IMG/VR virus record: IMGVR_UViG_3300025073_000623 | Span: 1 to 30,945 of that record | Source of the DNA: a virus | Lineage: Duplodnaviria; Caudoviricetes | Reading direction: 5' to 3' (one strand) | Length of the DNA stretch: 30,945 nt | Part shown: piece by piece, positions 108 to 30,944 of the stretch | Layout: every line of letters begins with the position of its first letter | Numbering within the stretch: position 1 is the first letter of the stretch | The notes under the pieces: generated by a model | Seen by the model: only the letters and a program-made list of their open reading frames with translations | Databases searched by the model: none | Told to the model about the DNA's origin: nothing | Made by a program: the position numbers and the translations under genes

Positions 108-834
108 TGACTGTCATCAGCGGAATCGGATTGCTGCTCTGGAGAACCTCGTAGTCCGGCGCACCGATCAGCTCGATTCCTTCCCAACCTTTTTGCTCAG
201 GTAGTACGGACAAATCTTCCCATGGATCCCAGAGCGGGTAGATACTGGCATTCGGGAAGGTCGTACTGTCCCGACCGTACTCATCCTCAGAACGCTCTTT
301 CGGGATTACATCTACCTTGAACGTCATTCCGACCAGCGATTGGTGTTTCCAGAGATTATCCCAGAGCTGATCGGCATAGTCCTGCCCCTGGTTGTCGTAT
401 TCGACCTCGCTCATTCCGCTGAATGCCCGGAAGAACTTCTTGCAAAGCCCCTCCGTTGCTTGTCGACGGTAGAGCTGCATGATCGATCCGCCCATGTTTG
501 GAGTAAGATCTACAGGCCGGTACTCCCCTTTCTTGATTCGGAGCGACCCGACTGCTCCGGAGCCGCACGCCAAAACGGTTCCTTCGATGATGTAGTATAT
601 GTCAGCCCCATCCTGGGCGATCTTGAATGCCCCGGCATTCAAGATATACCCACAGGGATACTTCGTTCCGTCGGAGGACTCGGCCCACCCGAGCCGGGCG
701 GAATTCGTATACTCACCCGGCTCTTTCACGGACGGGTTGTTGTAACTGCGGGCCTGGTGGCCCACAAACTGCACAAGGTTCTCATAGTCCGCAGCCTGCT
801 GAGCGGCGGACTTCTTCGGAGGTTGAACTGGCAT
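1..834 (-). CDS. Hypothetical protein, 3'-truncated (possibly SSB-like), with Pro/Ala-rich repeat tail
   Basis: Absent from the ORF track because it runs off the window. Manual translation from ATG at 834 (after AAGGAAG) is open for 278 codons: MPVQPPKKSAAQQAADYENLVQFVGHQ...SLVGMTFKVDVIPKERSEDEYGRDSTTFPN...KAAPPPVSRPTVPAAKAAPP. The SSB-like guess is positional only. Confidence 0.8.
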   Translation of the reverse strand, partial: MPVQPPKKSAAQQAADYENLVQFVGHQARSYNNPSVKEPGEYTNSARLGWAESSDGTKYPCGYILNAGAFKIAQDGADIYYIIEGTVLACGSGAVGSLRIKKGEYRPVDLTPNMGGSIMQLYRRQATEGLCKKFFRAFSGMSEVEYDNQGQDYADQLWDNLWKHQSLVGMTFKVDVIPKERSEDEYGRDSTTFPNASIYPLWDPWEDLSVLPEQKGWEGIELIGAPDYEVLQSSNPIPLMTVTKAAPPPVSRPTVPAAKAAPPPVSRPTVPAAKAAPP

Positions 835-921
835 TTCGCTTCCTTTCTTTCATCAGATACCGCCTCTTCCAAGGCGGCGGATTAGTTCTCCAGAGGACCG
901 ACCGGGTGGTCAGACAACCGA

Positions 922-2562
922 TCAGAATGGGATATTTTCATTGAGCCGGGCAAGGCCGGCAATCCTGTCTTCGATCGTCAGTGCGTCGAACGCCTGGATC
1001 CATGCGGTCAATTCGGCAGTCAAAGCCTCAGGTTCGGGTGTCTCCTCTTCCACTTCCTGCGGAGTAGCCCAAACGAACATCGGTGTTCCATCCTCCTCCT
1101 GAATAGCGTTCTCCAGGGCGTAGTTCTCAGTGACCCAGGAGAAGAAGGCCACAGCGGACTCGGCATCTGCGAAGCACGCCGATACCTCTTCCCAGGTCCA
1201 ACCGACGAAAGTCTCACCGACGAAGTCCGTCACTGCCGAGGCGAAACCCTTCGACACCGCTCCGGAGAAGTCGAAGTACTCGCTCAACGGGCAGGTCAGA
1301 AAATCCGCTACAGAATTTCGGTTGTCCAGCATTTCCGGCAGCGCTTCGACTTCGGTCTCCTTGACAGGCAATGCGGTATCTGTCTCCGGCAGAAGGGGCG
1401 TGCCGTCGTTTCGGACATCCTGTCGCAGGAAGGGCCGGAACGGAAACTCGAGCGTCTCTCCAACGTCTCTCAGTAGCACCGCGTAGAGATGCTGAGACAA
1501 GGTCTCGCCACACTTCTCTACGAGTTGCTCCCAGGAGTATCCTGAGAGTTCGAGGAGCTGAGTGTGCTTACGTCCGGTGCCGTCACTGATCATCTGCATC
1601 GTGTAGATCGCGTCAAAATCAGGGTACATACTCTGAATGTACTCCAACACATCTACCGTACCGTCGATCCCCTCGGCCTCGTCAGATACCGCTTCGGCTT
1701 CGGCTTCGGCTTCGGCTTCGGCTTCGGTCTCCGGAGATACCTCGGCCGGCAAACCCGGCATGACAAAGTGCTCGCCCATGTTCTGCTTTTCGATTCCCCA
1801 CTTCTGCAAAAAGACGGCGAGGGCGTTCGATCCTGAGTTGCCACCGACTCCTGCCCAGCAGCCCGGAATGACGAACAGGTCGTTCCACGAGATTGCCATA
1901 AGGTGTTCGAACGTAACATCCGCTACTGAGACAGCGCCCTGATACGCGTCGCACACCGCCTTAACCAGCTTTCTCGGAAACCCCTGAATGTCCTTCAAAG
2001 GTGTATCCAACGTGGGACAGTTCATTTCTGGTCCTTTCTTTTTAAGAGAAGCGAAAAGCTCCTCCGGAGGAGGCAGATTTACTGCCTGATATTGCGCCCG
2101 AAGCAGATGCTCTGCCAAGGGTGCCTTAAGAACAAGTACAGCTCCGTCCACAGGCAACGGATAGGTCTGAGCTTCGAACTCCGTGTCTCCTACAGGAGAC
2201 ACCACACGACACTTTCCAGGCTCACAAACAAACCACATCAGTACCCCGAGAATGAAACAGTCTCCCTCGGTAAGAGTCTCTGGAGACACTCTTCGATGCC
2301 CGGAGTTCTGTGAGAACAGTATCCGCCCTTCTGCCTCAAGGGACAGCCGCTCTTGCACACCATTGCGGGTACAATCGGGACTTTGTCTCCACTCAAAGAG
2401 CACAGTATCTGCATCCACACTCAGTACGACACCGATGTAACCGTCAATGAGAAACAGATCGTCTTCTTCGAGAAGTGTCGCAGGACCGTCGAATTCAATA
2501 AAGTCCATAGTAACCCTCAGAGGCGGTCTGAGAACCGCCATTGCTTCATCCCAAAGATCCAT
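922..2562 (-). CDS. Large acidic hypothetical protein with possible RNAP alpha-CTD/HhH-like repeats
   Basis: 546-aa ORF with GGAG 6 nt before the ATG. Very Glu/Asp-rich. The segment LDTPLKDIQGFPRKLVKAV...VTFEHLMAISWNDLFVIPG resembles the alpha-CTD pattern by eye. Ends in NENIPF. Confidence 0.8.
   Translation of the reverse strand: MDLWDEAMAVLRPPLRVTMDFIEFDGPATLLEEDDLFLIDGYIGVVLSVDADTVLFEWRQSPDCTRNGVQERLSLEAEGRILFSQNSGHRRVSPETLTEGDCFILGVLMWFVCEPGKCRVVSPVGDTEFEAQTYPLPVDGAVLVLKAPLAEHLLRAQYQAVNLPPPEELFASLKKKGPEMNCPTLDTPLKDIQGFPRKLVKAVCDAYQGAVSVADVTFEHLMAISWNDLFVIPGCWAGVGGNSGSNALAVFLQKWGIEKQNMGEHFVMPGLPAEVSPETEAEAEAEAEAEAVSDEAEGIDGTVDVLEYIQSMYPDFDAIYTMQMISDGTGRKHTQLLELSGYSWEQLVEKCGETLSQHLYAVLLRDVGETLEFPFRPFLRQDVRNDGTPLLPETDTALPVKETEVEALPEMLDNRNSVADFLTCPLSEYFDFSGAVSKGFASAVTDFVGETFVGWTWEEVSACFADAESAVAFFSWVTENYALENAIQEEDGTPMFVWATPQEVEEETPEPEALTAELTAWIQAFDALTIEDRIAGLARLNENIPF
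1691..1726. repeat. Hexamer microsatellite (GCTTCG)x6 encoding a Glu-Ala repeat
   Basis: Six exact copies, in frame within 922..2562 (EAEAEAEAEAEA). Confidence 0.95.
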
Positions 2563-2578
2563 TTAGTGCTCCAGAGAA

Positions 2579-2866
2579 TCAGAATGGGAGCGGAATGTCA
2601 AATTCAGCACACCACGCAGTTATGGTTGGTGCGCTCAATCCGGTAGCCTCCGCAATCTCCTTGCGTCCACGCGGCCAATCCCGACGACTCTTAATCACTG
2701 CCCGCAGATACCGCTCTTTGAGCTTTCGCTCAAGGACCGGAAAAGAGTCCGTCACTTGAAAAGTTAGAACCAGCTTCTTCGGCTCCTCTGGAGCTACTTC
2801 GATAGCCGCCTCAGGTACTGGATTCTTCGTAACCACTGTTCCAACCGGTTGTTGTGTAACTTTCAT
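2579..2866 (-). CDS. Small HTH DNA-binding protein (Fis-type HTH-like)
   Basis: C-terminal VLERKLKERYLRAVIKSRRDWPRGRKEIAEATGLSAPTITAW fits a Fis/NtrC-type HTH. Start ATG 2866 preferred: GGAGGAG SD and ATGA overlap with the helicase stop. Confidence 0.7.
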   Translation of the reverse strand: MKVTQQPVGTVVTKNPVPEAAIEVAPEEPKKLVLTFQVTDSFPVLERKLKERYLRAVIKSRRDWPRGRKEIAEATGLSAPTITAWCAEFDIPLPF

Positions 2867-4659
2867 TTTCTCCTCCGGAGATACCAAAGACTCCCACCGG
2901 TCTTTCTGTCAAATGTCGTATAGTTCTCTGTTAAAAATTGTCGTCCCTGGTGCCCAAACTGCAAACCCATCAGAAGGGTGACATCAGTTCCAGGAATCAT
3001 CCCGCCATTGCGGTATCTGTATTGCAAAAGTCGCTCGGCATACTCCCGGAAGCAAGCTTCTGTTGCTCCTGCCACCTGTTCCGCCGTCCACAGTGTGTGC
3101 AACGTATATGGTGCCAGAAGCTCTAAGGCCGTTCCGCCCCGCAGAATGCTTTTCAGCCATCTCAGCGGTTCGTCCATTGCCTTTCGACCGGCCCAAGCCT
3201 CGTGACACAATCTACTATAAGTATAGCTGATTTCCTCTGTTGAGTCAAATAAAAAATTTTCCTCGAAGCTTCTCCGGAGCTCCTCTAGCCTTGCCGCAGC
3301 CTCTTTTTCTGCGGCTAATCTCTCTTCGACTGTCCGTTTGTCGTAACCACATCTTCGACAAGTGTTTTGATTAAAGAAGAGGTCTGCTTTGCACTGAGGA
3401 CAAGTCTCTTCGAAGAGATAAGCACACTCGACGCATCGTAAACGCATGGACCCATTCAGTGTTCCACACTCTGGACAAGTCTTTTGTCCGATCTCTCGCG
3501 TTCCTTTCTTGCGAGTTCCTTCGAAAAGGTACTCATCAAGATCCTCTGGAGGGGGAAACCCCATGCCTCGCATTCGCTCAATGTTACCAACAACGTCAAA
3601 AATCCAGCAGTATTCCTTTCCAGGAGCTGTTCGTAGTCCTCTACCCCACTGCTGGTAGAAGACAATAGGAGACATTGTATGTCTAAGGAAAACAATACTC
3701 CGGAGATCTGGGATGTCAATTCCTGTACTGAGGACGTCAATCGAGATGCCAGACGTATCAACTGACCGGCGAATTCGTCCGAGGGCCTCAGCACGCCCTT
3801 CGGTGTCAGCAAGAATAACTTCATTTGGAACCCCAATCTCATCTAAAGCAGCACCAACATGAGCTGCGTGTAATTTGTCGGCTACGAAGTACAATACTTT
3901 GCCGTGTGGAATAACAGACCGAATAAAACGTACAATACGTTTCGTCACACCGGGATTTTCCCGCATTAACTTGCTGACTGCTCCGGAGGAGAAATCTCCG
4001 GCTTGTACAGGTAGCCCGTCAGCAGATACCGTATCTGGTGGTTCTATTACACGGCTGTACACCAAATATCCCATAGCCTGCAGCACAGACGGAATTGGAC
4101 CTGGAACGATCTCGTCGAAGCGAAGGGGGAGTGTCTTATTCCAGGGAGTGGCAGTATATCCACTCACGAAGGCGTCCCAGGTCCAAACTAGTTCCCCTAC
4201 TTTACCGGACAAAGATCGATGAACTTCATCAAAGATGAGTTTGGTGCCTTTGGACTGTAAACGTTTCATTAGGTGGCTGTACTTGAGGGAGTCGTGTCTC
4301 CGGAGAAGTGTCGCAGTAGAGATCAGTTGAATCGGCGCTAACTGATTCTCCTGCTCACCAGCAGCAACCCAACCATACGGTATCCGGAGTTCCGTGAGGG
4401 GACCGGGTTTTCCATCATTATCTACAAGGAGCTGTCTCAACACATCTACTGAATGACAGCAGATGCCGATTGTACTAAACTGGCCGCCCATTAGCGTTCG
4501 ACGAACATCCTCGACAATGGCTCGTGTCTTCCCTCCACCCGTGGCCATTGTACCGATCGGATTGAGACATCCAGCTTCGACGCGCTGAATATCATCAACG
4601 AACTGCACCTGATGCGGCCAGAGGTGCAGGTCAATTTTCTTGAGGGAGTCATAAGGCAT
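2863..4659 (-). CDS. Superfamily 2 (DExH) helicase with C-terminal zinc ribbons, RadD/YejH/UvsW-like
   Basis: Motifs I MATGGGKT, II IFDEVH, III TATP, V DVLSTGIDIP, VI QQWGRGLR, then CxxC pairs CPEC/CVEC/CPQC/CRRC. Start at ATG 4659 (MPYDS), just after the upstream stop, preferred to 4779. Confidence 0.92.
   Translation of the reverse strand: MPYDSLKKIDLHLWPHQVQFVDDIQRVEAGCLNPIGTMATGGGKTRAIVEDVRRTLMGGQFSTIGICCHSVDVLRQLLVDNDGKPGPLTELRIPYGWVAAGEQENQLAPIQLISTATLLRRHDSLKYSHLMKRLQSKGTKLIFDEVHRSLSGKVGELVWTWDAFVSGYTATPWNKTLPLRFDEIVPGPIPSVLQAMGYLVYSRVIEPPDTVSADGLPVQAGDFSSGAVSKLMRENPGVTKRIVRFIRSVIPHGKVLYFVADKLHAAHVGAALDEIGVPNEVILADTEGRAEALGRIRRSVDTSGISIDVLSTGIDIPDLRSIVFLRHTMSPIVFYQQWGRGLRTAPGKEYCWIFDVVGNIERMRGMGFPPPEDLDEYLFEGTRKKGTREIGQKTCPECGTLNGSMRLRCVECAYLFEETCPQCKADLFFNQNTCRRCGYDKRTVEERLAAEKEAAARLEELRRSFEENFLFDSTEEISYTYSRLCHEAWAGRKAMDEPLRWLKSILRGGTALELLAPYTLHTLWTAEQVAGATEACFREYAERLLQYRYRNGGMIPGTDVTLLMGLQFGHQGRQFLTENYTTFDRKTGGSLWYLRRRK
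3220..3248 (-). promoter_or_regulatory. Sigma70-type promoter inside the helicase gene
   Basis: TTGACT (3248-3243), 17 bp, TATACT (3225-3220), preceded by AT-rich AAAATTTTTTAT. Confidence 0.65.
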
Positions 4660-4660
4660 G

Positions 4661-4870
4661 TCAGGAACGCTCCAGAGACGGTCTGACCCACATTGCTGCG
4701 AAAATGGGGTCTTCTTCCGCAAGTTCGTCACAAGCTTCATCTGGATCCGTCCCTGCGTCATACAGATCTCGCCAGGCAATATCGACGAAATCTTCGTGTG
4801 TCAGGCCCTCTGTACTAGAAGCCATTGCTGTATCAACCTCTTCAAGCCACCTGCTAAATGCTTGACTCAT
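4661..4870 (-). CDS. Small acidic hypothetical protein (69 aa)
   Basis: ATG 4870 after AAGGAGGAG. First gene after the promoter at 4940-4968. 18 D/E versus 4 R and no K. Confidence 0.75.
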   Translation of the reverse strand: MSQAFSRWLEEVDTAMASSTEGLTHEDFVDIAWRDLYDAGTDPDEACDELAEEDPIFAAMWVRPSLERS

Positions 4871-4939
4871 AACTCCTCCTTGTCGCTCCTCTGGAGCGCT
4901 GGTTGACAAACGGTATTTGATGACGAACAAACTAGAGGA

Positions 4940-4968
4940 AGTATAGCACAGGAGGGGAGTTAAGGCAA
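4940..4968 (-). promoter_or_regulatory. Sigma70-type promoter with extended -10
   Basis: TTGCCT (4968-4963), 17 bp, TGcTATACT (-10 at 4945-4940). Intergenic, AT-rich upstream. Confidence 0.75.
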
Positions 4969-5005
4969 GAAAATCTTTTCGAAGGTGTTCCGAAAACGTT
5001 TCGCG

Positions 5006-5218
5006 TCAGTCAGCGACACCTAGAATTTTTGATAGCCAGCCGATCAGTGCAGCATGCTTGGTTTCGGCACTTGAAGCAGCAACATACTCGAAGCCGTTAC
5101 CTGATACCGTCCAGATATCTTCAGTATCTTGTGTGAACGTCACATTGACGCTGATCGCAATCGTCGGTGCTGCACTGGAACCCACTTGAAGAACCACTTT
5201 TTCCGTTGTTGAAGCCAT
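5006..5218 (-). CDS. Hypothetical protein (70 aa)
   Basis: ATG 5218 (MASTTEK) preceded by GGAGG. Fills the gap after the methyltransferase. Confidence 0.6.
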   Translation of the reverse strand: MASTTEKVVLQVGSSAAPTIAISVNVTFTQDTEDIWTVSGNGFEYVAASSAETKHAALIGWLSKILGVAD

Positions 5219-5262
5219 AATTCCTCCGAACCACCAGCTGGCGGTTTGTCTCTGGAGAACCA

Positions 5263-6060
5263 TCATCCGAAGATTCGGACGACGACCTCCGTCGTGTTTT
5301 CATTTGAAAGTCCACAAATGGTGTGGACTTTCTTCACTGCTTCATAATCGAATCTCGTACCTAAATAGCGAAGTGTCTCCAGTACTGCATCCGTTTCGGT
5401 GAGAAGGCACACTGCACCGCAAAAAGCCCAGTACTCCATTGACCGAATGAGATGCTCCTGCTCCTCCGGAGACCAGCCGTCCTTTGCGTAATTGACCGCC
5501 GTACCGACGTAGGGCGGGTCACAAAAAATGACGTCACCTTCTCCGATCTCCTGTTCGAGGAGCCAGGTCCAGCTACCGCTCCGGAGAACCGTCAATCGCA
5601 AGAGATCAGCCAGTTCTTTTAATTGAACCTCAGAAGGCAAAGGTTTTCCACCGTCACTTGCGAAGGTTCCATTGAAAGTACCGTCGCTGTTCTCTCGGTA
5701 CTTCGCACTGAAACACTTCTGAACGAGATAGATAAACGAGCCTGGCAATTGCAACCCGGCATTGTAGTCTGCCTTCACCTGCTCGAAATCGCACTCTAAG
5801 TCATGCCATTCAAGGTCCTCGAGGACGGCAGATACCGAGTCGCGAATAAACTTCCACTGTTGGATCAGGCGAGGGTTAACGTCGCTTAGAAAAACGTCTC
5901 CTTCAACTGTTGCTGTCTGTAATACGGCTATCTCCAGAGCACCTCCACCAAGGAATGGAGAATAAAAGTTCCGAATCCTGTACGGTATCTGTGAAAGAAT
6001 GTGAGGTAGAAGTTTTCGCTTTCCTCCGCTCCAACTGAAAGGCGGCTTAACGTAAGACAT
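5263..6060 (-). CDS. dam: DNA adenine N6-methyltransferase, D12/Dam family
   Basis: N-terminal PPFSWSGGKRKL, SAM-binding motif I FYSPFLGGGAL, SDVN, catalytic FCDPPY. TGATG coupling to the upstream gene. Specificity not established. Confidence 0.92.
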   Translation of the reverse strand: MSYVKPPFSWSGGKRKLLPHILSQIPYRIRNFYSPFLGGGALEIAVLQTATVEGDVFLSDVNPRLIQQWKFIRDSVSAVLEDLEWHDLECDFEQVKADYNAGLQLPGSFIYLVQKCFSAKYRENSDGTFNGTFASDGGKPLPSEVQLKELADLLRLTVLRSGSWTWLLEQEIGEGDVIFCDPPYVGTAVNYAKDGWSPEEQEHLIRSMEYWAFCGAVCLLTETDAVLETLRYLGTRFDYEAVKKVHTICGLSNENTTEVVVRIFG

Positions 6061-7850
6061 CAGATACCGCCTTTCTTTCGAAGCGAATCAAACTGTACGA
6101 TGTTCTCTTTCGAGTCATCTGCCCACTGCGACTTCTCTGGAGAAGTGCCGACCGGCCGGGCGAATTGTCCCTTGCGAGGCGCTGCTACGCTATCCCAGCC
6201 TGTCGGAGCTGGCCGCCAGGTTGTCGGGGCTTTCCAGCCGACAAGTCGACTTGGCCCTCGCCATTCACGCCCTTGAGACCAACCAAGGGCTGTCATTGCT
6301 GTGGAGATATTTGCGCTAACTTTACTGTCAATCCGTTCTTTCGTTACATCTAGCAGCACTTGCGCAACATCCATAGTTTGGACGAATGTAAGCCCATACC
6401 TATACAGGTCTTCTCGAATTACTTCCGTAAGGGCGTTCGGAACCAGGCGAGTATTCATCTCCTCATTTATGAGAAGTGTCTCTTCCGCGTTCGGAAAGTA
6501 ACTCCAGCCTGCTGCTAAAAGCGCAATAGCTTCTGCAATAATTTGCCCTCGGAACTCAGCAATGTAGTCTGTATCGATATTCCGGTGCACAGTTATCGGC
6601 ATATATCCGCGCTGTTTGCCTGAGTCGTTGAGCCAAGCTCCCTCTGCGTTTACTGTACAGTAGGTAACGAAAGTTCGTGCATACATCCTAAATTCTGTGT
6701 CATAAGGTGCACGGTAGTGATCTGTGCTCGAACGTGCCCAGCCCTTAAGCTCGGCCGCGTTCTTTCTCCAGAGGAGCTTATCAAGCTCCGAAATTTCCCG
6801 CATGAGAATACTACTGCCCGCCTGGAGCCCTTCCTTATCCCCAAGTTCTAGAGGGGAGTCAGAAAAATAAATCTTATGTGGAACAAGAAGGGCCATCGAC
6901 GTGCTCTTACGAAATCCTTGTGGCCCTTCAAGTACAAGCAGTGTGTCAACTTTGCAGCCGGGTTTTAGCAACCGAGCAACAAACGACAGAACGAATATCC
7001 GAAGAAAAGGAGTGACAACTCTGGTGGCGTATTCAATGTCATCCGTAAAACATAAAGCTAGACGACTCGGCTCCTCCGGAGCATCTTTTTGGCCGTAGTG
7101 CGGTGGTATCAGCCGCAGTTCACCTCCCCACACTTGTTTTTTAGCCCACTCCAACGCCCGATTAGAGCGCTGGAACATAGCCGCCGTTTGAGCGGCTTGA
7201 ATCAGCGCATTCTTACTGTTCACAGAAAGTTGCCACGCCTCTGAGAACCAAGATGACATAAGACCGAAGGCTGTCGGGTGTGAAATGACGGCCGGCAGTA
7301 CGAAATCCGGTGCCTGAGTGAGTGAGTCTTTGACGACAGATGTCTCCGGAGCTATTTCGTCCAGAGTCGAAGCATCGAGCGCCAGCGGCAAGGGTCGTTC
7401 GATCGTGACCTTCTTGAGCAGGGTGTCGTAACCTAGACAGCCGGCCCAAGCGGGGTCGTTACGAAAAATTGATGTGAGATTGGCGATACCTGTATCAATC
7501 AAACCGGTGACAGGGTTACGTAGTAACGCCTGTCGCCAAGCGGTATCTGCCTGCGCCTTTAACCGCGCGAGATTGACAGGCTGCATCTGGCCTGCATCCC
7601 AGCCCCCGTCGAGAACAGCCACCAGAGCATCAGTATCAAAATCAAATCTAAGAGCCTCAATTACCTGATCGTAAATCTCTTCTTTCGATGGAAAGTTTTC
7701 TCCGAGTGTAGCAGATACCGCGCCGGCCCAGCCAATGAGCCTCTGGAGTGCTTCAATAACCTTTTCGATTTTGGAGTCGTCTCCAAGGTTAGAGAAGCGT
7801 TGAATCTTTACCGCTAACTCTCGTCGAGCGTACTCAGAAACTTCCACCAC
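6060..7850 (-). CDS. VapE/VirE-family P-loop ATPase (phage replicative helicase-like)
   Basis: ARLLKPGCKVDTLLVLEGPQGFRKST Walker A, EISEL Walker B, YRAPY and TVN motifs typical of virulence-associated protein E family. Follows the primase-like gene. Confidence 0.88.
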   Translation of the reverse strand: MVEVSEYARRELAVKIQRFSNLGDDSKIEKVIEALQRLIGWAGAVSATLGENFPSKEEIYDQVIEALRFDFDTDALVAVLDGGWDAGQMQPVNLARLKAQADTAWRQALLRNPVTGLIDTGIANLTSIFRNDPAWAGCLGYDTLLKKVTIERPLPLALDASTLDEIAPETSVVKDSLTQAPDFVLPAVISHPTAFGLMSSWFSEAWQLSVNSKNALIQAAQTAAMFQRSNRALEWAKKQVWGGELRLIPPHYGQKDAPEEPSRLALCFTDDIEYATRVVTPFLRIFVLSFVARLLKPGCKVDTLLVLEGPQGFRKSTSMALLVPHKIYFSDSPLELGDKEGLQAGSSILMREISELDKLLWRKNAAELKGWARSSTDHYRAPYDTEFRMYARTFVTYCTVNAEGAWLNDSGKQRGYMPITVHRNIDTDYIAEFRGQIIAEAIALLAAGWSYFPNAEETLLINEEMNTRLVPNALTEVIREDLYRYGLTFVQTMDVAQVLLDVTKERIDSKVSANISTAMTALGWSQGREWRGPSRLVGWKAPTTWRPAPTGWDSVAAPRKGQFARPVGTSPEKSQWADDSKENIVQFDSLRKKGGI

Positions 7851-7884
7851 GTACCTCTGTTCTGGCGACTTCTCTGGAGGAGTG

Positions 7885-9260: not shown

Positions 9261-9310
9261 ACTGTCTCCTTTCGATTTCAAATAGAAGACTAACCACTTG
9301 AACTGAAGAC

Positions 9311-9339
9311 AGTATATCACATCTCAGCAGTAAGGTCAA
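9311..9339 (-). promoter_or_regulatory. Sigma70-type promoter of the replication module
   Basis: TTGACC (9339-9334), 17 bp, TGaTATACT (-10 at 9316-9311), with AT-rich UP-like AAAAATTTTATT upstream. Confidence 0.8.
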
Positions 9340-12374: not shown

Positions 12375-12376
12375 GA

Positions 12377-21599: not shown

Positions 21600-21602
21600 G
21601 CG

Positions 21603-22046: not shown

Positions 22047-22148
22047 AGGTGCTCCAGAGAAATTAAGCACGTCGTCAAAAACCAACTCCCAGTCGTGTCT
22101 ACCAGAAGGAGTGTCTCGCTCGAGAAAGAGACGACGCTGCTTACTATA

Positions 22149-22177
22149 AGTATAGCTGATCACACACGCAGAGGCAA
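22149..22177 (-). promoter_or_regulatory. Sigma70-type promoter between capsid and neck genes
   Basis: TTGCCT (22177-22172), 17 bp, TATACT (22154-22149), AT-rich upstream. Confidence 0.7.
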
Positions 22178-22235
22178 GAGAATATTTGAAAATGCGGAAA
22201 GAAAACTGGCAGGTGCTCTGGAGAACCGAAGAAAA

Positions 22236-23309: not shown

Positions 23310-23390
23310 CAGATACCGCCTTTCTTTTTCTTGCGCCTTAGGCGCGGTACTCCGGAGAACCGAACCCTCTTCGGGTTGGTGGAGTGTTGC

Positions 23391-23822
23391 TTATTCGATC
23401 TCATCCAGGAAAGAGGCACCCTTCGCCTCGAGTTCGGCTGCAAGTTCTTCACGGGACATGCCGGCAGCATTCCGCTTTCCACCGTTCAGACCTGGCTGCT
23501 CCTTCGGCGTTTTCCCGAAAGGAGTCGCCGGAGTCACCGGAACCTTCGCGACTTCGGGAAGATACCTCATCCAGGCGTTGCCAGCCTTGGTGACGACGTC
23601 CGCCAGGGACTCAAGCGCCTCGGAGCCTTCGACGATTTTACCTTCGAGCTGAGCTTCACGCGCCTGTGCCTTGGCTTTCTCATGCGCGAGTTCCGCCTCG
23701 ACCTTCTTGCGTGCGTCGGCCTCCCCTTGAATTCGTGATGCTTGTGTTTTCGACACTTCAAGCAGTTCAGCCAATTGCTTCGACTGCTTCTCGAGTTCAG
23801 CCCTCATTTCCTCTTCAGTCAT
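23391..23822 (-). CDS. Nested in-frame scaffolding protein (Nu3-like)
   Basis: In-frame ATG 23822 (MTEEEMRAELEK) preceded by AAAGGAGA, giving a 143-aa charged coiled coil. Confidence 0.6.
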   Translation of the reverse strand: MTEEEMRAELEKQSKQLAELLEVSKTQASRIQGEADARKKVEAELAHEKAKAQAREAQLEGKIVEGSEALESLADVVTKAGNAWMRYLPEVAKVPVTPATPFGKTPKEQPGLNGGKRNAAGMSREELAAELEAKGASFLDEIE

Positions 23823-24572
23823 TGGATTTCTCCTTTGTACATGATTTACGACGCCGGCCACCTTTGCGGACAGCACGGCGCCTTGCTGATCCGCCCAAAA
23901 CTGTTCTGATCCGTAGCCGAAAGTAGCTACGGATTTCTGAAATTCTTTCGTCGAAGATACCGCTTCGGCCTTCCAATGTTCCAGCTCCTCTGGAGACATC
24001 TTCGAATTGGGGTCTCCCCACCCCTTCTTGCTACCTCCGGAGAACTGTGTTATCTTAACACCTGCTTTTTCGAGTCTCTCTGTCTGATCGACTCTTCGAC
24101 GAATTGTCGCAACCGAGGCCAGTAAGGCCTCTGGAGAAGCATAAAGACTCTTTGCCGGCGAAGCCGCAGCTGTCGCCAGTAGATACGCAGCAGAAGTAGC
24201 ATAAGCAGGCACCCATACCGTAGTAGGTTTTTGCTTGGCGAAACCGTTCAAGGCTTCAGCAGCGTCTTGATTGCCAATTGTAGTGCCACCTGGAGACATA
24301 ATCTCAAACTGCACGCGTTTGACCTTTGAATCTGCATAGAGATCCCCCACCTTTGCAACCAGATCGGCATATCCTACCTCACCCCACTCTGGATCAAAGG
24401 AAAGCGCACTACTAAGCTGAATCAGACCTGTTTCTCTGGAGCGTCGGACGGTCAGCCCCTCCTTCACCTCGAAAAAAGAGAAGAAGGCTCGCTCAAGCAA
24501 GATCGGATCTACACTGAGCAGCTGACCTTCATACCGTGCAAAGTAACCTTCCGGAGAAATATGTATCGTCAT
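23391..24572 (-). CDS. S49-family prohead protease with C-terminal scaffold domain
   Basis: IMSPGG, ATSAAYLLA and LASVA motifs of S49 (lambda gpC/SppA-like) peptidases, plus a C-terminal coiled coil. Confidence 0.85.
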   Translation of the reverse strand: MTIHISPEGYFARYEGQLLSVDPILLERAFFSFFEVKEGLTVRRSRETGLIQLSSALSFDPEWGEVGYADLVAKVGDLYADSKVKRVQFEIMSPGGTTIGNQDAAEALNGFAKQKPTTVWVPAYATSAAYLLATAAASPAKSLYASPEALLASVATIRRRVDQTERLEKAGVKITQFSGGSKKGWGDPNSKMSPEELEHWKAEAVSSTKEFQKSVATFGYGSEQFWADQQGAVLSAKVAGVVNHVQRRNPMTEEEMRAELEKQSKQLAELLEVSKTQASRIQGEADARKKVEAELAHEKAKAQAREAQLEGKIVEGSEALESLADVVTKAGNAWMRYLPEVAKVPVTPATPFGKTPKEQPGLNGGKRNAAGMSREELAAELEAKGASFLDEIE

Positions 24573-25717
24573 TTTGAAGCCTCCAAAATCCGCTTGGCGT
24601 CGGCTTCACAACCGGGCCAGTTTTTCACTGCGGTACTGAGATCCATAAGAATCTTCGCTCTGCGCTCCATGTCCTTCATGGAGCGAACCTTCCAGCTGAG
24701 CTCAAACACCACAGAAGACGGTATCTGCCGAAAGGTTCTCCAGAGCGGAATCCACCACCAATTAAGACTGTACGCCAGTCGAGCCAATTCCAACGCGAGC
24801 ATCGGAACCGAAACTTCGTTGATGAGAACTTCTACTGCATTGTATGACCCTGAATCAAGACGGGTCGTCGTCGACTGACCCTTCAAATATTCTGCCTTGA
24901 TCATGTCGATCTCCTTCTTCAGTTCCGCTGTGGAGCGGTAGTCAAAAGGAGTCGACTGTACTCTTGTGATGCAGTCTTCGGTGGCACCGTCCGGTACTTC
25001 AATCCAAGTCTTCTGGCCAATCTCGTCCATAGTTCTAAAGAACTTAGGCTTATCCTTCTTCGCGTCCATGCCTTCTGTACGAACGAGAAGAGGACTGATC
25101 GAACTGTGCATGGCATTCCGAAGCCACCAAACGAGAGCCTGAACCCCACCTACACACAAAGGTCCGAGAATATTCCAGCCCGCCCCAATGCCACTCCAGG
25201 GCTTAGGATCAATCTCTGTTCCAAGAAGAAGGTAGTCCTCACCAAATTCTATCGGAGATTTGTTATTCCATCCTCTTCCACTTGGAAGGAGAATAGAGGT
25301 TTTTGCGTCTTCCCTGAGCCACCAAGTTCGCTCTGCATCTCGAGATAAAAACGCCGGATTCCACGGTTGAAGAATCGGACCGCGCAACGTATCGTGGATA
25401 ACCTGACAAAATTCTGCCTTGTTTAGCCGTTGCCAGGTGAGGAGATCAGATACCGTATCTGGAGGTATGCACCTTGCGAAATCGGCTCTCAAGGTGGCTT
25501 GCTGCTCTGGAGAACCGCCTTCAATCTCGAGAACAGCATTTTGCATGACCGCTGCTCCACGATCAACGATGCACTGCCCGATCCGAGGATCCTTACAAAG
25601 CCAGTGGTCGAGATATCCCAGTGACTCGAAGTCTCCAGACTCGAGATCGTTTGGAACTGTTTTCAGCCGATCGAAGTCCCACGTACCGTAGTCTTCGATT
25701 TCTGGTTGCGTCTTCAA
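24569..25717 (-). CDS. Portal protein (Mu gp29 / DUF935-like)
   Basis: KDPRIGQCIVDR and AEYLKGQSTTTRLDSGSYNAVEV match DUF935 patterns. Follows TerL. TTG start with GGAG SD. Confidence 0.8.
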   Translation of the reverse strand: MKTQPEIEDYGTWDFDRLKTVPNDLESGDFESLGYLDHWLCKDPRIGQCIVDRGAAVMQNAVLEIEGGSPEQQATLRADFARCIPPDTVSDLLTWQRLNKAEFCQVIHDTLRGPILQPWNPAFLSRDAERTWWLREDAKTSILLPSGRGWNNKSPIEFGEDYLLLGTEIDPKPWSGIGAGWNILGPLCVGGVQALVWWLRNAMHSSISPLLVRTEGMDAKKDKPKFFRTMDEIGQKTWIEVPDGATEDCITRVQSTPFDYRSTAELKKEIDMIKAEYLKGQSTTTRLDSGSYNAVEVLINEVSVPMLALELARLAYSLNWWWIPLWRTFRQIPSSVVFELSWKVRSMKDMERRAKILMDLSTAVKNWPGCEADAKRILEASK

Positions 25718-25756
25718 TTAGGTTCTCCGGAGCGGTCGAAATGACCTCGTGCGTCC

Positions 25757-27574
25757 TTAGGCAGCCATAGCTTTTCCAAATCGATCATTTTGTGATCGAC
25801 CTGCGTATGTTCTAGAGTATACCATAGCACAGCCCATTCTGTCAAGTATTACTTGCGTCGCGTAACGCAACGCGTCCAACGCATGCTTGAGAGCTTTATC
25901 TTTTTTCGATCCGTCCGCCACGTAATGGCGGAATGACCGAGACAAAACTTTGCAGCGGCTATGAATTTTCAACCGACGCTCCTTAAACGCTTGATTTACT
26001 CGTCGCTCCTCTGTCTCGACGGAGCCAGGATACTTGTTCGGCTTGCGAATATAGGGTGCAGCTTCTCCGGAGAGTTCGCCAATTGCCTTGGAGAGAAGCT
26101 TATTCAGTTTCTCCCCACGAACCTCTTTTCCACCTGTGTTGATATCCCCAACCCAAAACGTTACCTCCTCAACAGAGAGACTGTTCCGATGAAGCATTTC
26201 AAGAATGCCTTCGGCATCATCTGTCGAGGTCGTCTTTTTCTTAGAGACATACTCATCAATTATAACCGCCGTTGAGCTTGGGTCATACATTCGGTATGCA
26301 ATGAGTACCGCTACCTGCGTAAAGGCGCCCTCACCGTGGTCGATGCCTACTGCAAACATCCACTCGTCTGCGTCCTCCTGTACGAGTCGCAACCAGCGAT
26401 CTACAGTGGAGCGATCTGTACCTGTCTCCTTGTAATACGTGAAAGCGCGGTTTTTCGTCACGCCTTCCCATTCACCGAAAAGCCTTTGCGGAGTTTGTTC
26501 CTCCCGGTAAGCGTCCCGCCTTGATTCCAACTCCTCCGGAGCAAACCAAGGACAGTCCGGGATACCGATCACATGCTGCTTCCACTTTCCTCGAGGACCA
26601 ACTCCGCTCTCTCCGTGTGTCTCTCTGTACTCCGCATCTCCCTCCACATAATCCCGCAGCCAGGTAAAGTCCTCCCCCTCTTCTCCGATAGGGGTAAAAG
26701 ACATTATCACCCAAGCCGTTCGAGCAAGCCCGGCTCGACGAATCTCGTCGATCGTTCCGGCTTTCGGAGGCTCGTCGATCCAGATACCGTCTGCAGTGAG
26801 CGAGTTGAGACTGTCTGTATCTTGGTTCGAGGACCGAAAGATGATCTTCGTATTCGTTTTTGGAAAAACGATACAGGGGTTTCGGACGCCCCACATATTA
26901 CGAGTATCGTAGTGGGTACTGATCCAATCAATGGCATCAATGGGGCATAGCGCCCAAAGTGCTTTGAAGACCCCTTCCCGATTCTTATCACTTCCTGTGA
27001 CTACCAGAATAGTCTTCTCAATTAAAGGATCCACCCACTTTGCATCGATCTCCTTCCAAGGATGCTTCCCGGAAGCGTAGAAAAGCACCTCCGCAGCGGC
27101 AGCATAGCTTTTCCCAACCTGGTTTGGCGCTCGCAAGAAGCGCAATAACGCTTCGTCTGCATGAAAAGCCTGAAATTTCGGTGCGTAGTTAGCATCACGA
27201 AGGCCGATTCGTAGGGTGCTGTAGAACCAGCTAAGGCGATCGTTTTCCTTGTGCCATTGCTCAAGCCACGTGAGAGACCGTTCGAGTGCACGCTCCAGAT
27301 ACCGTTTGCGTGGACCTCCGGGGTATGAAAAAGCGTTGGTTGCTCCGGAGAACCGAACCGGGTCCCCCGCCATAGCCCCCATCGCTGAGCCCGTCGTCGG
27401 CCCGTCTGCCTTAGCAAGCTCGATTCGAATTGCCTGAATTGCTCGAACGCAGTTATCCCTGCGGTTCCGATCTGGGTCAATCGTATACCTTATGGGACAA
27501 TTTGGCCCCGGACCTTCAGGCCAAGGGGCGGCGGTTGTTTTTGCCCTTTCCAAGGGGCGGTATCCGGTTCTCAT
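25757..27574 (-). CDS. terL: Terminase large subunit (P22 gp2-like ATPase motifs)
   Basis: Walker A APNQVGKS, Walker B IWIDEPP, coupling motif SFTP, nuclease VGIDHG and HALDALRY. Confidence 0.93.
   Translation of the reverse strand: MRTGYRPLERAKTTAAPWPEGPGPNCPIRYTIDPDRNRRDNCVRAIQAIRIELAKADGPTTGSAMGAMAGDPVRFSGATNAFSYPGGPRKRYLERALERSLTWLEQWHKENDRLSWFYSTLRIGLRDANYAPKFQAFHADEALLRFLRAPNQVGKSYAAAAEVLFYASGKHPWKEIDAKWVDPLIEKTILVVTGSDKNREGVFKALWALCPIDAIDWISTHYDTRNMWGVRNPCIVFPKTNTKIIFRSSNQDTDSLNSLTADGIWIDEPPKAGTIDEIRRAGLARTAWVIMSFTPIGEEGEDFTWLRDYVEGDAEYRETHGESGVGPRGKWKQHVIGIPDCPWFAPEELESRRDAYREEQTPQRLFGEWEGVTKNRAFTYYKETGTDRSTVDRWLRLVQEDADEWMFAVGIDHGEGAFTQVAVLIAYRMYDPSSTAVIIDEYVSKKKTTSTDDAEGILEMLHRNSLSVEEVTFWVGDINTGGKEVRGEKLNKLLSKAIGELSGEAAPYIRKPNKYPGSVETEERRVNQAFKERRLKIHSRCKVLSRSFRHYVADGSKKDKALKHALDALRYATQVILDRMGCAMVYSRTYAGRSQNDRFGKAMAA
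25816..25845 (-). promoter_or_regulatory. Sigma70-type promoter in the 3' end of terL, facing portal/head genes
   Basis: TTGACA (25845-25840), 18 bp, TGgTATACT (-10 at 25821-25816). Confidence 0.65.
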
Positions 27575-27587
27575 TCTTTAGCCAGAC

Positions 27588-27902
27588 TCAAGGGTAAGTC
27601 AAACTCTCCCAAGTGTCATATACGCTCCTGTAGACTTCCTCAGGTCTACAAGATATGGCTTTTGAATCACTTACTTGCGTCTCAGTAAGAAAGAAGGCCA
27701 CAAGTTTGTCTTGCTTTTCGAAAATGATCTCCACATATTGCCACTCCCACTCTCGTAGCGCCTGGACCAGTAACGACAATGTCTCATAGTCAGGTCCTTC
27801 GTAAAGTCTACATACAAAAGGCACTGACATTAGGGGTACACCTATATTAGACGTGTCACGGTAGCAGGGGCTCCCATCGCGGTAGCACACTTGCATTCCC
27901 AT
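27588..27902 (-). CDS. Hypothetical protein
   Basis: 104-aa ORF filling the gap between putative terS and terL. Start uncertain. Confidence 0.5.
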   Translation of the reverse strand: MGMQVCYRDGSPCYRDTSNIGVPLMSVPFVCRLYEGPDYETLSLLVQALREWEWQYVEIIFEKQDKLVAFFLTETQVSDSKAISCRPEEVYRSVYDTWESLTYP

Positions 27903-28575
27903 GCGTTTCCTTTGTTTCCTTCTTCTCTGGCTCGATAACTAATACTGTTCGGCCAGAGCCATCACCCAACTCCTCCAGAGATACCGGCGCACGGCCAACA
28001 AGCGAAGCTTCTGATACCTCCGTGCGCTGCGGAGTACTCATTTCGATCAACCGCGCAGCAGTCGTGGCCGCCGTGGCCGCCGAATCAGCTGTTTTGAGCA
28101 TGTCATGTAACCGTTCTCTGGGAATTGGTACACCTCTTTCAATATAACCATCAATAAAAGCCATCTGATGTACATACATCCGTTGAAGCCCGTTTGCGCG
28201 TTCAGTTGCGTGTTCCAAAAGCCTTTGAACCCGCGGATCTTCAGCAGATACCGCGCTTTCTGTGGTGGTAACCGTAACAGCAGCGGTGCCAGAAGCAACA
28301 ACAAGGGGAGATGCCATACCGGCTGCGGTCTGTACTTGTACCTGGTACTCCGGAGAAGCTAGCGCCCGCTCTCGAAGGGAAACGTACTGTTCTCGGCTGA
28401 GTGTAACCCCGGTGAGAGCGCTTATCTGTGAAATGGCAGATACCGGTGTTGCCCGGAGTGCGACAAGCTCACAAAGATGTTCTCGCAACACCTCATTCGC
28501 CCATAAAGGGGCCAAGGTATCTGGCGTTTTGTTTAAGACCGCGCGCAGGCGACTTCTCATCTCAACAGGGTTCAT
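27856..28575 (-). CDS. Putative terminase small subunit
   Basis: First gene after the 28596-28624 promoter, strong TAAGGAGG SD, helical character, upstream of terL. Function is positional only. Confidence 0.55.
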   Translation of the reverse strand: MNPVEMRSRLRAVLNKTPDTLAPLWANEVLREHLCELVALRATPVSAISQISALTGVTLSREQYVSLRERALASPEYQVQVQTAAGMASPLVVASGTAAVTVTTTESAVSAEDPRVQRLLEHATERANGLQRMYVHQMAFIDGYIERGVPIPRERLHDMLKTADSAATAATTAARLIEMSTPQRTEVSEASLVGRAPVSLEELGDGSGRTVLVIEPEKKETKETHGNASVLPRWEPLLP

Positions 28576-28595
28576 CTATCAAACCTCCTTATGCA

Positions 28596-28624
28596 AAGAT
28601 AGCAGACTTGTATCGGCAAAGCAA
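28596..28624 (-). promoter_or_regulatory. Sigma70-type promoter of the packaging operon
   Basis: TTGCTT (28624-28619), 17 bp, TGcTATCTT (-10 at 28601-28596), with UP-like GAAATTTTTT upstream. Confidence 0.65.
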
Positions 28625-28823
28625 GCGAAAAAATTTCAAAACAGCCTCTAATACTGAAGTTCGGTACTCCGAAGAACCTACTCAGTTGGCTAAAACGGTT
28701 GTTTGAAGTTACTTCTCCAGAGAACTTGTTCGGAAGGACTCGATTTGTAAGTGTTTTTCTGGAAAAAATTTCGTGGTAGCCTTTTCTGGTGTGCTCGAGG
28801 CCCCTGGGGGGGGCCCCACCCGC

Positions 28824-29300
28824 CTAAGTGCATGAATTCATTGAGGTTTTCGGCTGCCATCGATGTCATTTTCAAGTAATCAACTGACTATTAGACGTCT
28901 TTTTAGCCCTTGACTGTTTGCTAAGTGCTTGATTTCATTGAGGAATCGGGCTGCCACTTTTGGCATCGTCTAATAGTCAACTAATTACTTGACGCTCCTC
29001 TGCCACTTTTGGCACTGTCTAATAGTCAACTGGTTATTAGATGGTAGTACGCAAAAACAGACTGTTAGATGTATACACAACAGGTTAGATATATGCCTCT
29101 ATGGGAATATGTTTATATATCTATGTGTACATATGTGCATATGTACTCCAGAGGAGCGAGTAACAAACTGTTAGTCAGTATACCTAACAACAGTTGACTG
29201 TATCATCAACAATCAACTGGTCACTAGACGTTGACAGAAATGGCAGCATCCAGATACCGCTGACTGTTTGGTTCTCCGGAGTAGTCTGCCACTTCTGGCA
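28824..29300. repeat. Cluster of direct and inverted repeats in the main non-coding region
   Basis: CTAAGTGCwTGAwTTCATTGAGG at 28824 and 28921. CTGCCACTTyTGGCA at 28951, 29000 and 29286. GTCTAATAGTCAACT twice plus an inverted copy at 28885-28897. Palindrome GTACATATG-TG-CATATGTAC at 29127-29146. Confidence 0.85.
28922..28934 (-). promoter_or_regulatory. IHF consensus site
   Basis: Minus strand AATCAAGCACTTA matches WATCAANNNNTTR exactly. Several near-matches lie nearby. Confidence 0.5.
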
Positions 29301-29453: not shown

Positions 29454-29481
29454 AAAAAACCCCGTCGCACGTGCGACGGGG
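29454..29481 (-). terminator. Rho-independent terminator of the ParB-like gene
   Basis: Perfect 22-bp palindrome CCCCGTCGCACGTGCGACGGGG (29460-29481) followed by T6 on the minus strand, about 30 bp after the stop. Confidence 0.85.
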
Positions 29482-29510
29482 CTTGAAGGGGGGGGGGAAT
29501 TCGGGCGGGT

Positions 29511-30944
29511 TTACTTCGCGGCGGCCTTGTCCAACAAAACGAGAAGATCGTCAAGCTCCGGCATCCCGAATCCAGTCATCCCGTCCGGTGCCTTGAACCC
29601 GAACGACCATGCGACCACTGCCAGCATCGCACCGTAGGAAGGAGCTGTCTTGAGCGCCGTCTGGATGCGTCCGGCCAATTCGGCCGGGCCGATCTTCGAC
29701 ATACCACCGAGCAGGCTGAGCGGAAACCTGACAGCCGACGATTCCGGCACATTCTTGTACACGTTCTGAACGGATTTTCCGCCCCTGAAGGCCGGATGGA
29801 AAAGCCCGTCTGCCTCGCGCGCTTCCCGGTCACCCGTCCCTTCGCCCGTCCCGGTCCCTTCGCCCGTCCCGGTCCCTTCGCCCGTGCCCGTGCCGGTTTC
29901 GCCCGTGCCGGTACCTTTCGCCGCGCGCCCCTTTGCCAGTGCCTCGAGCCGGCGGGTGCCGGCAGCCATTGCCTCGAGACTTGCCACCCGTCCCGGTTCG
30001 CCACCGATCTGGATGCCGATCGTCGCGTAGTCGTTCGCCGCTTTCAGGCTGATGCGGCTCTCCAGGAATGCCCGCTGGATCTCCGAATCTGCCTTGCTGA
30101 TGCGCAACAGATTGAAGTATGCCCCGCTCGGCTTCCCCTCGGAATTGAGCGCATACCCGAGCCGCTCTGCACACTGCACATCGGTCCAGCCAGCGACCTT
30201 GAATCCGACGAGGAGACCGAACTTTTCCGTTGCCTCCGCTGCTTTCGGAGCAACGTTCGCCGCAGCTTTCAGTGCCTGTATCGCGATGCGCTCCTCCGGA
30301 GAGTACACGTCAACCCACACGTTCGGATCGACCGGCGCGTTTTCCGCGATCAATTCGGTCAATCCCTGCGTTCGACGGTGCCCATTGATGAGCACATCCC
30401 AGTATGCACCGTCCTCCGATCCGGCCGGAATACGAAGCACGCTCGGAGCAAGCGTCGAGATGATACCACCCGCGCCCTTGATCGACGCCTTGAGCTCCTC
30501 GAGCGACGTGAGGCTACCTGCCGCGATTCGCGCGTCGTCGGAGAGAAAACTCCAGTCATCCTCACCGAGCAACGGTCCATGGACAGCCGGATCGAACGGC
30601 ACGAGCGTCGAGACGGGCACCTGCTCATAGGTCGGCACATGGGCCAGACCGGTTGACTGCGCTTCCTTGATTGCCTCGATCAACGCTGTGTCCAATGCCT
30701 GAACAACAAACGCAGCTCCCATAGCGGCATCCATCGCTGCGTTGAGCCGTGCGATGTCGTCGTTCGTAAATTTCTGGACGGCGGGCTTGCTGGGAGCCGG
30801 CTTGCTGGGGGCCGGCTTGCTGGGAGCCGGCTTGCTGGGGGCCGGCTTGCTGGGGGCCGGCTTGCTGGGGGCCGGCTTGCTGGGGGCCGGCTTGCTGGGG
30901 GCCGGCTTGCTGGCCGGGGATGCCGCCGGGGTAGTGGCCGGGGT
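29511..30944 (-). CDS. ParB-like protein (ParB/Srx N-domain plus HTH) with repeat-rich extensions, 5'-truncated
   Basis: LEELKASIKGAGGIISTL...VLINGHRR (GxRR arginine patch) and HTH-like GWTDVQCAERLG...LLRISKADSEIQRAFLESRISLKAA. The frame stays open upstream of 30734 to the window edge through (PSKPA)n. Confidence 0.82.
   Translation of the reverse strand, partial: TPATTPAASPASKPAPSKPAPSKPAPSKPAPSKPAPSKPAPSKPAPSKPAPSKPAVQKFTNDDIARLNAAMDAAMGAAFVVQALDTALIEAIKEAQSTGLAHVPTYEQVPVSTLVPFDPAVHGPLLGEDDWSFLSDDARIAAGSLTSLEELKASIKGAGGIISTLAPSVLRIPAGSEDGAYWDVLINGHRRTQGLTELIAENAPVDPNVWVDVYSPEERIAIQALKAAANVAPKAAEATEKFGLLVGFKVAGWTDVQCAERLGYALNSEGKPSGAYFNLLRISKADSEIQRAFLESRISLKAANDYATIGIQIGGEPGRVASLEAMAAGTRRLEALAKGRAAKGTGTGETGTGTGEGTGTGEGTGTGEGTGDREAREADGLFHPAFRGGKSVQNVYKNVPESSAVRFPLSLLGGMSKIGPAELAGRIQTALKTAPSYGAMLAVVAWSFGFKAPDGMTGFGMPELDDLLVLLDKAAAK
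29836..29915. repeat. 18-bp coding repeat encoding a (GTGEGT)n linker
   Basis: GTCCCTTCGCCCGTCCCG x2 exact plus degenerate copies. Protein reads GTGTGETGTGTGEGTGTGEGTGTGEGTG. Confidence 0.9.
30781..30913. repeat. 15-bp coding tandem repeat, about 9 copies, encoding PSKPA
   Basis: GCCGGCTTGCTGGG(G/A) units with period 15. Confidence 0.95.

Follow-up and report, generated by a model that had tools for sequence, protein, structure and literature searches.

Cluster O mycobacteriophages carry arrays of a 17-bp dyad repeat, TGTTCGGNNNCCGAACA, described as of unknown function and proposed to serve as dimer-binding sites (PMC4351075). In the Cluster O phage Corndog, 34 copies with invariant half-sites are reported, 14 of them between genes and 10 near gene starts, with a higher density at one end of the genome (PMC4351075). 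Here we analyze a dyad array in another tailed phage (Duplodnaviria; Caudoviricetes). The window, our term for the whole 30,945-nucleotide stretch analyzed (positions 1 to 30,945 of IMG/VR record IMGVR_UViG_3300025073_000623), is tiled by a 16-bp dyad built on the octamer CTCYRGAG (motif 1, forming lattice 1) and encodes a ParB-like protein that, judged from sequence, is the likeliest reader of the dyad. Read as its reverse complement, the window matches positions 16157-47101 of a virus record of 47,120 bp that is rated 100% complete (G001), with five mismatches.

Dyad arrays in phages are already known but have stayed unexplained since the Cluster O report. As Cluster O is described there, the two share more than 30 dyad copies across a phage genome, a ParB-like gene and no integrase or parAB found. 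Unlike Cluster O, the present genome has 122 copies in 47 kb, a graded position weight matrix, 70 of 84 window sites in coding DNA, even tiling and a second motif. The two dyads have no sequence relation. The statement in a preliminary description of this DNA that no such system is recognized from phages was thus too strong, since Cluster O pairs more than 30 17-bp dyads with a ParB-like gene (PMC4351075). In a literature search outside subscription journals and supplements, no phage dyad array other than Cluster O came up, nor any account of comparable density or even tiling.

Sites of this length are read by ParB-family proteins. parS, NBS and OB are all 16 bp long (PMC7383237, PMC11790492), and NBS and parS are reported as palindromes bound by Noc and ParB dimers through a helix-turn-helix (HTH) (PMC7383237, PMC12704722). 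Compared by eye with NBS, TATTTCCC, the phage half-site RSTYCTCY has T(-6), T(-5), C(-2) and C(-1) in common and differs at -4 and -3. Unlike the phage lattice, Noc/NBS and ParB/parS are chromosomal, act in division or segregation and number tens of sites or fewer per megabases. VirB is described as a ParB-family protein able to counter host silencers (10.64898/2025.12.19.695565). KorB of plasmid RK2 has a 16-bp site, OB, and a working CTPase; it represses promoters by sliding as far as 1.5 kb, and in its CTP-bound form it failed to condense DNA in vitro (PMC11790492). As described there, KorB resembles the phage system, with its predicted ParB-family protein, in having a dispersed 16-bp site on a mobile element and a role beyond partition, and its KorA partner with the site OA parallels the second motif found here. 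The phage differs in placing one site per 370 bp inside genes, where RK2 has about a dozen KorB sites in all, in its divergent Box III and in having no ParA/IncC partner found.

Two further systems share parts of the pattern. Cyanobacterial HIP1 (GCGATCGC) is a hyper-abundant octamer palindrome in coding DNA, reported as selected and non-randomly spaced (PMC5861425), with embedded methylase targets (PMC13756078). HIP1 is a host chromosome feature with a period of ~40 kb, whereas the present lattice is a phage feature with a 300-bp exclusion and graded flanks. Stoperators of Cluster A mycobacteriophages are dispersed protein-binding sites, many at gene junctions (PMC4351075). The second motif recalls stoperators in its asymmetry, its coding-strand bias and its place at four gene starts; unlike stoperators as described, motif 1 is symmetric, 23 of 57 copies of the second motif lie on the opposite strand, and no integrase was found.

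The lattice is real and strongly selected, and what is distinctive here is its density, its coding cost, its cooperative variants and a second, oriented lattice. This genome thereby offers an unusually sharp handle on phage dyad arrays. Its sites are numerous enough to measure the reach of one site (~200-300 bp) and to show that variants are interchangeable. A direct binding assay is within reach, since the site, a putative reader and, in a relative, a naturally occurring variant of specificity can all be named.

Density, coding cost and spacing of motif 1

Exact counting confirmed the size and spread of the lattice. The preliminary description had counted by hand about 84 sites between positions 137 and 30301, in nearly every gene, in different reading frames and in most intergenic gaps. 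The window holds 46 CTCCGGAG, 19 CTCCAGAG, 19 CTCTGGAG and 0 CTCTAGAG, exactly as counted, or about one site per 370 bp. Seventy sites are coding (reading frames 15/32/23) and 14 intergenic; 29 of 32 annotated genes hold at least one, and so do 12 of the 14 intergenic gaps of at least 12 bp (2.8 expected). At junctions, the core GGAG is often positioned as a Shine-Dalgarno sequence. The whole G001 record has 122 sites (62/29/31 by variant), or 2.6 per kb, against 4.1 (maximum 11) in 200 dinucleotide shuffles. Weaker CTGYGGAG-type variants are likewise in excess, and CTAG is depleted in the phage DNA (observed/expected ratio, O/E, 0.23). With both motifs masked in G001, the lone half-site GCTCCTCC occurs 15 times against 1.5 expected, and CTCCGCAG and CTCCACAG are also in excess.

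The phage pays in amino acids for site coverage. The excess survives the codon-preserving shuffle that had been named beforehand as the refuting test: with amino acids and codon usage kept, 1,000 shuffles gave 5.2 sites (maximum 14) against 72 counted gene by gene. Of 117 synonymous opportunities counted in the same way, 72 are used, while five control octamer sets use 0-4 of 27-72. The proteins themselves are bent to fit the motif. [SAPT]PE tripeptides number 32 against 10.3 expected, SG[ADEGV] 33 against 17.5 and L[RQW][RS] 26 against 13.8; [SAPT]LE is not enriched (23 against 18.1). In the terminase, three lattice sites sit in one insertion and two variable stretches.

Sites are spaced far more evenly than chance allows, which bears out the earlier impression of a fairly even spread. 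The coefficient of variation (CV) of window gaps is 0.49 against 0.98 for random placement, and none of 20,000 random placements was that low. The largest window gap is 1020 bp (P=3.5e-4), and only 5 gaps fall below 100 bp where 19.7 are expected. Sites drawn at random among the synonymous opportunities gave a CV of 0.75, with 0 of 20,000 draws as low as 0.49. The median distance to the next site is 271 bp for the 70 used opportunities and 99 bp for the 45 unused ones (P=9e-9; n=115), and the latter value resembles that of random positions. None of 674 control words (4-6-mers) was as even (best z -2.0 against -4.7 for the lattice), and GATC, GANTC, GTAC and CCGG were randomly spaced.

The three core variants act as one set. 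In G001, the union of variants has a gap CV of 0.54, while CG sites alone have 0.98 and CA/TG sites alone 0.93; with CG sites fixed and variants placed randomly, 0 of 20,000 sets reached 0.54. Because each class is random alone and yet they tile together, the variants are interchangeable, and the placement of one takes account of the others. Relative to expectation, the density of site pairs in G001 is 0.22, 0.44, 0.70 and 1.2 at 0-100, 100-200, 200-300 and 300-400 bp, and flat beyond a depleted zone of <300 bp; no helical phase or long-range period was found in site spacing there. Sites lie within 200 bp of 82% of G001 (65% at random) and within 300 bp of 95% (79%). The pattern is most simply explained by sites being positively selected with a diminishing return within ~300 bp; the reach of one site is put at ~200-300 bp.

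Two other accounts of spacing were tried and rejected. Gap length correlates with GC (guanine plus cytosine) content (rho 0.35), as if sites tracked AT-richness in an anti-silencing role, but the correlation is gone outside G001 10-18 kb. Degenerate sites do exist (18 non-core sites score at least 11 against a background of 2.7), but as gap fillers they fail: the 35 scoring at least 8 show no significant preference for the middle of gaps (P=0.09), and including them leaves the CV no lower.

Flanking bases extend the core to a graded 16-bp dyad, RSTYCTCYRGAGRASY (RSTYCTCY|RGAGRASY). The symmetrized logo reads R S T Y C T C Y, and information ends 8 bp from the axis. Flanks are better at non-CG cores (p=0.03) and at sites in wide gaps (rho 0.22, p=0.015). 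All four long palindromes quoted in the preliminary description lie where it placed them, and GGTTCTCYRGAG or its reverse occurs 12 times. Its claim of flank-extended symmetry holds for the logo but not for individual sites: left and right flanks of the same site make 178 complementary matches against 179.5 in shuffled pairings (P=0.58). Because paired flanks are not extra complementary, the long perfect palindromes are best seen as two draws from one half-site consensus. A hairpin or cruciform role was rejected, since flank self-complementarity does not exceed the consensus, as was deamination decay as the origin of the CA/TG variants, since these fill gaps between CG sites. We infer that each site is two half-sites read by a protein dimer, not a hairpin or enzyme target, and that the lattice is most plausibly a protein-binding site under coverage selection rather than a product of mutational drift, hairpins or a methylase.

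A candidate reader, a second motif and relatives

The candidate reader is an orphan ParB-like gene whose ribosome-binding site is itself covered by a lattice site. Its product has a low-complexity PATT/PAPSK N-terminus, a GHRR box that fits the Box II pattern GxxR (residues 118-121 of a 407-aa frame), an HTH-like segment and a GT-rich linker. HHalign of the two-sequence alignment A2 against 21 ParB-family segments gave a probability of 89% (E=2e-6), with a score of 44.7 where none of 40 shuffles exceeded 18; the match is colinear across the N-domain and the HTH-like segment, and in this full alignment that segment lines up with the ParB HTH, with a 7-residue insertion. The sole homologue from a protein search, P0001, is 63% identical and matches phrog_1033 at 4.6e-9. 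Nearest neighbours by ESM features are ParB clusters (0.94-0.96). An unrelated viral locus, L071, has two ParB-domain genes and 7 CTCCGGAG in 6.5 kb of 68% GC, clustered and not tiled.

The protein resembles an orphan ParB, KorB or Noc at best, and is not part of a ParABS system. Box I (GIISTLAPS aligned to GVIQP) and Box III (AANVAPK aligned to ENLQRE) diverge, so the canonical CTPase motifs are lacking; available descriptions of orphan ParBs have them often without Box III. No ParA Walker A was found in 511 six-frame open reading frames (ORFs) of G001 by motif search alone, nor in Pfam/PHROG scans, and the ParA-binding motif LG(R/K)GL is absent from the translated gene. Where ParABS has few clustered centromere sites, G001 has 122 over the entire record. 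The earlier proposal of a dimeric protein acting along the genome thus gains from DNA-level selection for a dyad, cooperative tiling and a ParB-like candidate, but the segregation role included in it is unlikely because no ParA was found.

The genome carries a second motif, absent from the preliminary description and found in the present analysis. The 9-mer CGGTATCTG occurs 57 times in G001 (834-46248) against 0.27 expected, with little flank preference. Spacing is even among its 34 copies on the coding strand (CV 0.57, P=2e-4) and random among the 23 on the opposite strand, 14 of which lie in the first 14.4 kb. Four copies stand directly before ATG (855, 6062, 10177 and 23311), fused to AAGG..ATG starts, and one pair forms a perfect 16-bp dyad (G001 2468-2483). 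Placement relative to motif 1 shows no relation (P=0.41). A factor other than the reader of motif 1 probably recognizes it. Conceivable roles are those of a Chi-like or uptake-sequence signal, a stoperator-like site or a half-site.

The relative compared at the DNA level, locus L030 (1.8 kb, 59%), carries what appear to be altered forms of both motifs. It has 0 CTCYRGAG but 12 WTCYRGAW (0.8 expected, maximum 5 of 3000), and 3 CGGTATTG against 0.03 expected; these words were defined after inspection, and half of the 12 derive from a single double site present in three copies. Its coding parts hold 8 WTCYRGAW-type sites against 2.5 under synonymous shuffling (P=3e-4). A common TCYRGA core with other flanks is as expected of a reader that each lineage has for its own. 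The terminase has 30 homologues, 8 of them at 45-63% identity, and no match among 50,697 GenBank phages. Viral scans returned only this phage and 4 distant loci (31-33%) without the lattice, and pattern scans for the lattice returned unrelated loci in 10 of 10, 33 of 36 (highest 0.93 further sites per kb), 7 of 8 and 15 of 18 cases.

Prokaryote genomes surveyed do not share either motif at phage density. Among 170 distinct genomes of 199,900, motif 1 reached at most 0.26 per kb against 2.6 in the phage. The highest densities by set were 0.26 of 50, 0.18 of 61 and 0.11 of 61 genomes; G018, one of the set of 50, is counted in the tally but not in the maximum. A scan for the best 16-mer in 11 of 64 parts of the collection gave 120 loci. 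In the 80 with full flanks, further sites never exceeded 0.66 per kb, and for the 40 short ones the count was made over the whole genome instead. The estimated 730 stretches with the 16-mer are near the uniform expectation of ~555. For motif 2, the highest count among 81 genomes of one phylum was 80 copies in 4.8 Mb, compared with 57 in the 47 kb of the phage. This survey lowers the likelihood of host mimicry.

A proposed genome coat and its rivals

We tentatively favor a model in which every dyad is a loading point for a ParB-like dimer whose reach is only a few hundred bases and which coats the whole genome, shielding and organizing phage DNA. Its observed basis is the enrichment, even spacing, interchangeable variants, graded flanks, amino-acid footprint and ParB-like gene without ParA. 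The 16-bp dyad would be kept evenly so that almost no DNA lies more than ~300 bp from a docking site for the phage's own orphan dimer, which would bind through its HTH. Divergence of Box III may shorten or abolish CTP-driven sliding; sites would then have to be dense because each serves only ~150-250 bp on either side. The resulting coat could mark phage DNA as a single physical unit, shield it from position-independent attack by host or phage nucleases and host silencers, and organize it for replication or packaging. The spacing of sites is also close to the length at which DNA forms loops most readily, so bridging of neighboring sites is possible. If the model is true, a small tailed phage has made a coat for its entire genome out of a fold known from chromosome segregation, and the system might be a new form of self-marking or counter-defense and a new orthogonal ParB-site pair. 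A bolder version, in our view doubtful, is a two-layer address code: the dyad, spaced at ~360 bp (nucleosome-to-loop scale), would be read by a slide-impaired ParB dimer that builds sequence-programmed phage chromatin, and the oriented 9-mer by a second factor. Both words would change together between relatives, so that each phage marks its own DNA as self.

Several results weigh against the coat model. The window's ParB-like protein has no Pfam or NCBIfam match and a PHROG match of only E=0.036, and a purpose-built ParB hidden Markov model found P0001 but not this protein at E<=1. Aligned alone, its HTH-like segment reaches an HHalign probability of 6% (E=0.006), with a score of 21 where the best of 40 shuffles scored 15.5. 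AlphaFold models are too poor to use (predicted local distance difference test, pLDDT, 38 and 36); Foldseek with these low-pLDDT models gave no match, and neither did a PDB sequence search. No link was established between P0001 and L030. The ParB-like gene and the region upstream of it (G001 10.7-17.9 kb) are the least tiled part, with one site per 720 bp (CV 0.35); several high-scoring CTGYGGAG variants lie there. KorB clamps reach 1.5 kb, so a working clamp would not need sites every 370 bp, and arguing for a short reach is ad hoc. The under-dispersion may partly reflect selection against close pairs, and the junction enrichment (12 of 14 gaps) fits gene regulation too.

Gene regulation is the core of one rival, in which a phage-encoded dimer serves genome-wide transcriptional silencing or timing, through roadblocks of the KorB or stoperator kind while the phage stays latent without integrating. 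In its favor, the genes all share one strand, several junction sites cover ribosome-binding sites including that of the ParB-like gene, the region around this gene is spared, KorB itself belongs to the ParB family and represses at long range, and no integrase matched in Pfam/PHROG scans. We still consider this unlikely: 70 of 84 sites lie in genes at amino-acid cost, beyond the needs of a few promoters, no ParA was found for plasmid maintenance, and since the core GGAG doubles as a Shine-Dalgarno sequence, sites at junctions simply come cheap. It is likewise improbable that the reader is a host protein (a nucleoid organizer, uptake receptor or self-licensing defense factor) and that the phage mimics a host code like HIP1 or a DNA uptake sequence. 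HIP1 does provide a precedent, as a comparably abundant, selected octamer palindrome in genes with non-random spacing (PMC5861425), and L030 could infect another host. Against this stand 0 of 170 genomes above 0.26 sites per kb, 0 of 80 full-flank loci above 0.66, and a reported HIP1 period of ~40 kb, not 300 bp (PMC5861425).

A different phage protein could also read the dyad. Candidates are a 102-aa HTH protein, the small-terminase-like protein and a DNA-condensing virion core protein involved in packaging or ejection. The presence of two motifs implies a pair of readers, most proteins of the phage lack an assignment, and the 102-aa gene, which has weak repressor likeness, is flanked by sites at 2873 and 2569. 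The dyad's length, equal to that of ParB-family sites, and the pairing of dyad array and ParB-like gene described for Cluster O make these candidates quite improbable next to a ParB-like reader. A functionless mutational ratchet, driven by methylase or repair (methyl-CCGG decay to CA/TG, or CTAG-removing repair), is largely refuted already and has very little chance of being right. The CA/TG variants are one transition from CG, CTCTAGAG is absent, CTAG is depleted and a phage methylase is present. Yet such a process would not place variants in the gaps between CG sites, pass over opportunities close to a site already present or raise PE tripeptides threefold. Graded flanks of 4 bp are not what an enzyme target would show, and the methylase is of the Dam family, with no GATC in either motif.

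Genome context

The phage is of contractile-tailed type according to Pfam/PHROG scans, with a terminase, Mu-like portal, S49 protease, DUF2586-type sheath and baseplate J. The remainder of G001 beyond the window encodes a PolA-like polymerase, an exonuclease and numerous small genes, and every gene of the record lies on the same strand. The Dam-family methyltransferase is probably unrelated to the lattice because GATC is in neither motif. Pfam/PHROG scans of the phage proteins gave no integrase match.

Features of the window, with positions counted from its first letter
Feature	Position	Strand	Remarks
Lattice 1, CTCYRGAG cores	137..30301	.	84 sites: CG 46, CA 19, TG 19
Lattice 2, non-palindromic 9-mer CGGTATCTG/CAGATACCG	854..29259	.	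30 copies in window
102-aa protein, HTH-like C-terminus, alternative reader candidate	2579..2887	-	phrog_2745 repressor E=0.063, weak
Replication module	2863..8985	-	SF2 helicase, VapE-like helicase, adjoining unassigned 366-aa gene; both motifs throughout
Dam-family N6-adenine methyltransferase	5263..6060	-	PF02086 E=2e-26; TIGR00571 above cut-off
Virion and packaging module	9444..28575	-	terminase, portal, protease, sheath, baseplate J; both motifs throughout
Terminator-like 12-pair hairpin and T run directly 3' of ParB-like gene	29457..29484	-	consensus match only
Orphan ParB/KorB/Noc-like gene, candidate reader	29511..30945, beyond window edge	-	G001 16047-17591, start at 16047

Metagenome runs are labelled groundwater or soil, and part of the phage is present in 13 of the 14 listed, with 10 as possible sources of it; none of the listed runs containing it is an RNA run. 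Four of the 14 were compared over window 1000-20900, where only five adjacent bases vary. These bases, at window 15631-15635, differ from G001 and three runs, are the sole variation in 20 kb and may be an assembly error or local inversion. Runs X11 and X13 have loose contig ends at shared places (window 7525, 12733 and 14540), possibly from chance short matches or a related element. Assemblies break at low-complexity coding repeats (AAPPPVSRPTVPAAK, EA, GT/GE, KPAPS) at window 1-110, 1681-1736, 29860-29920 and 30790-30945, two of which lie within the ParB-like protein. Window 28576-29510, before the small-terminase-like gene, is AT-rich and non-coding; it contains a block that recurs (AGTTGACTATTAGAC..GTGCCAAAAGTGGCAG) and a candidate ORF of 249 bp.

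Locus L004 adds further features. At 2059-5241 it encodes a PolA-like DNA polymerase with an N-terminal circularly permuted YpsA SLOG domain (PF12694 E=2e-29; phrog_17 E=2e-4), and at 6309-6713 a small protein (phrog_2450 E=9e-14, function not assigned in PHROG) that we take to resemble DUF488. Its 10700-17500 region has half the lattice density, higher GC and many small genes without known function, and is a possible origin or genome end; at ~14870-15000, non-coding DNA holds about six tandem copies of a 21-bp unit.

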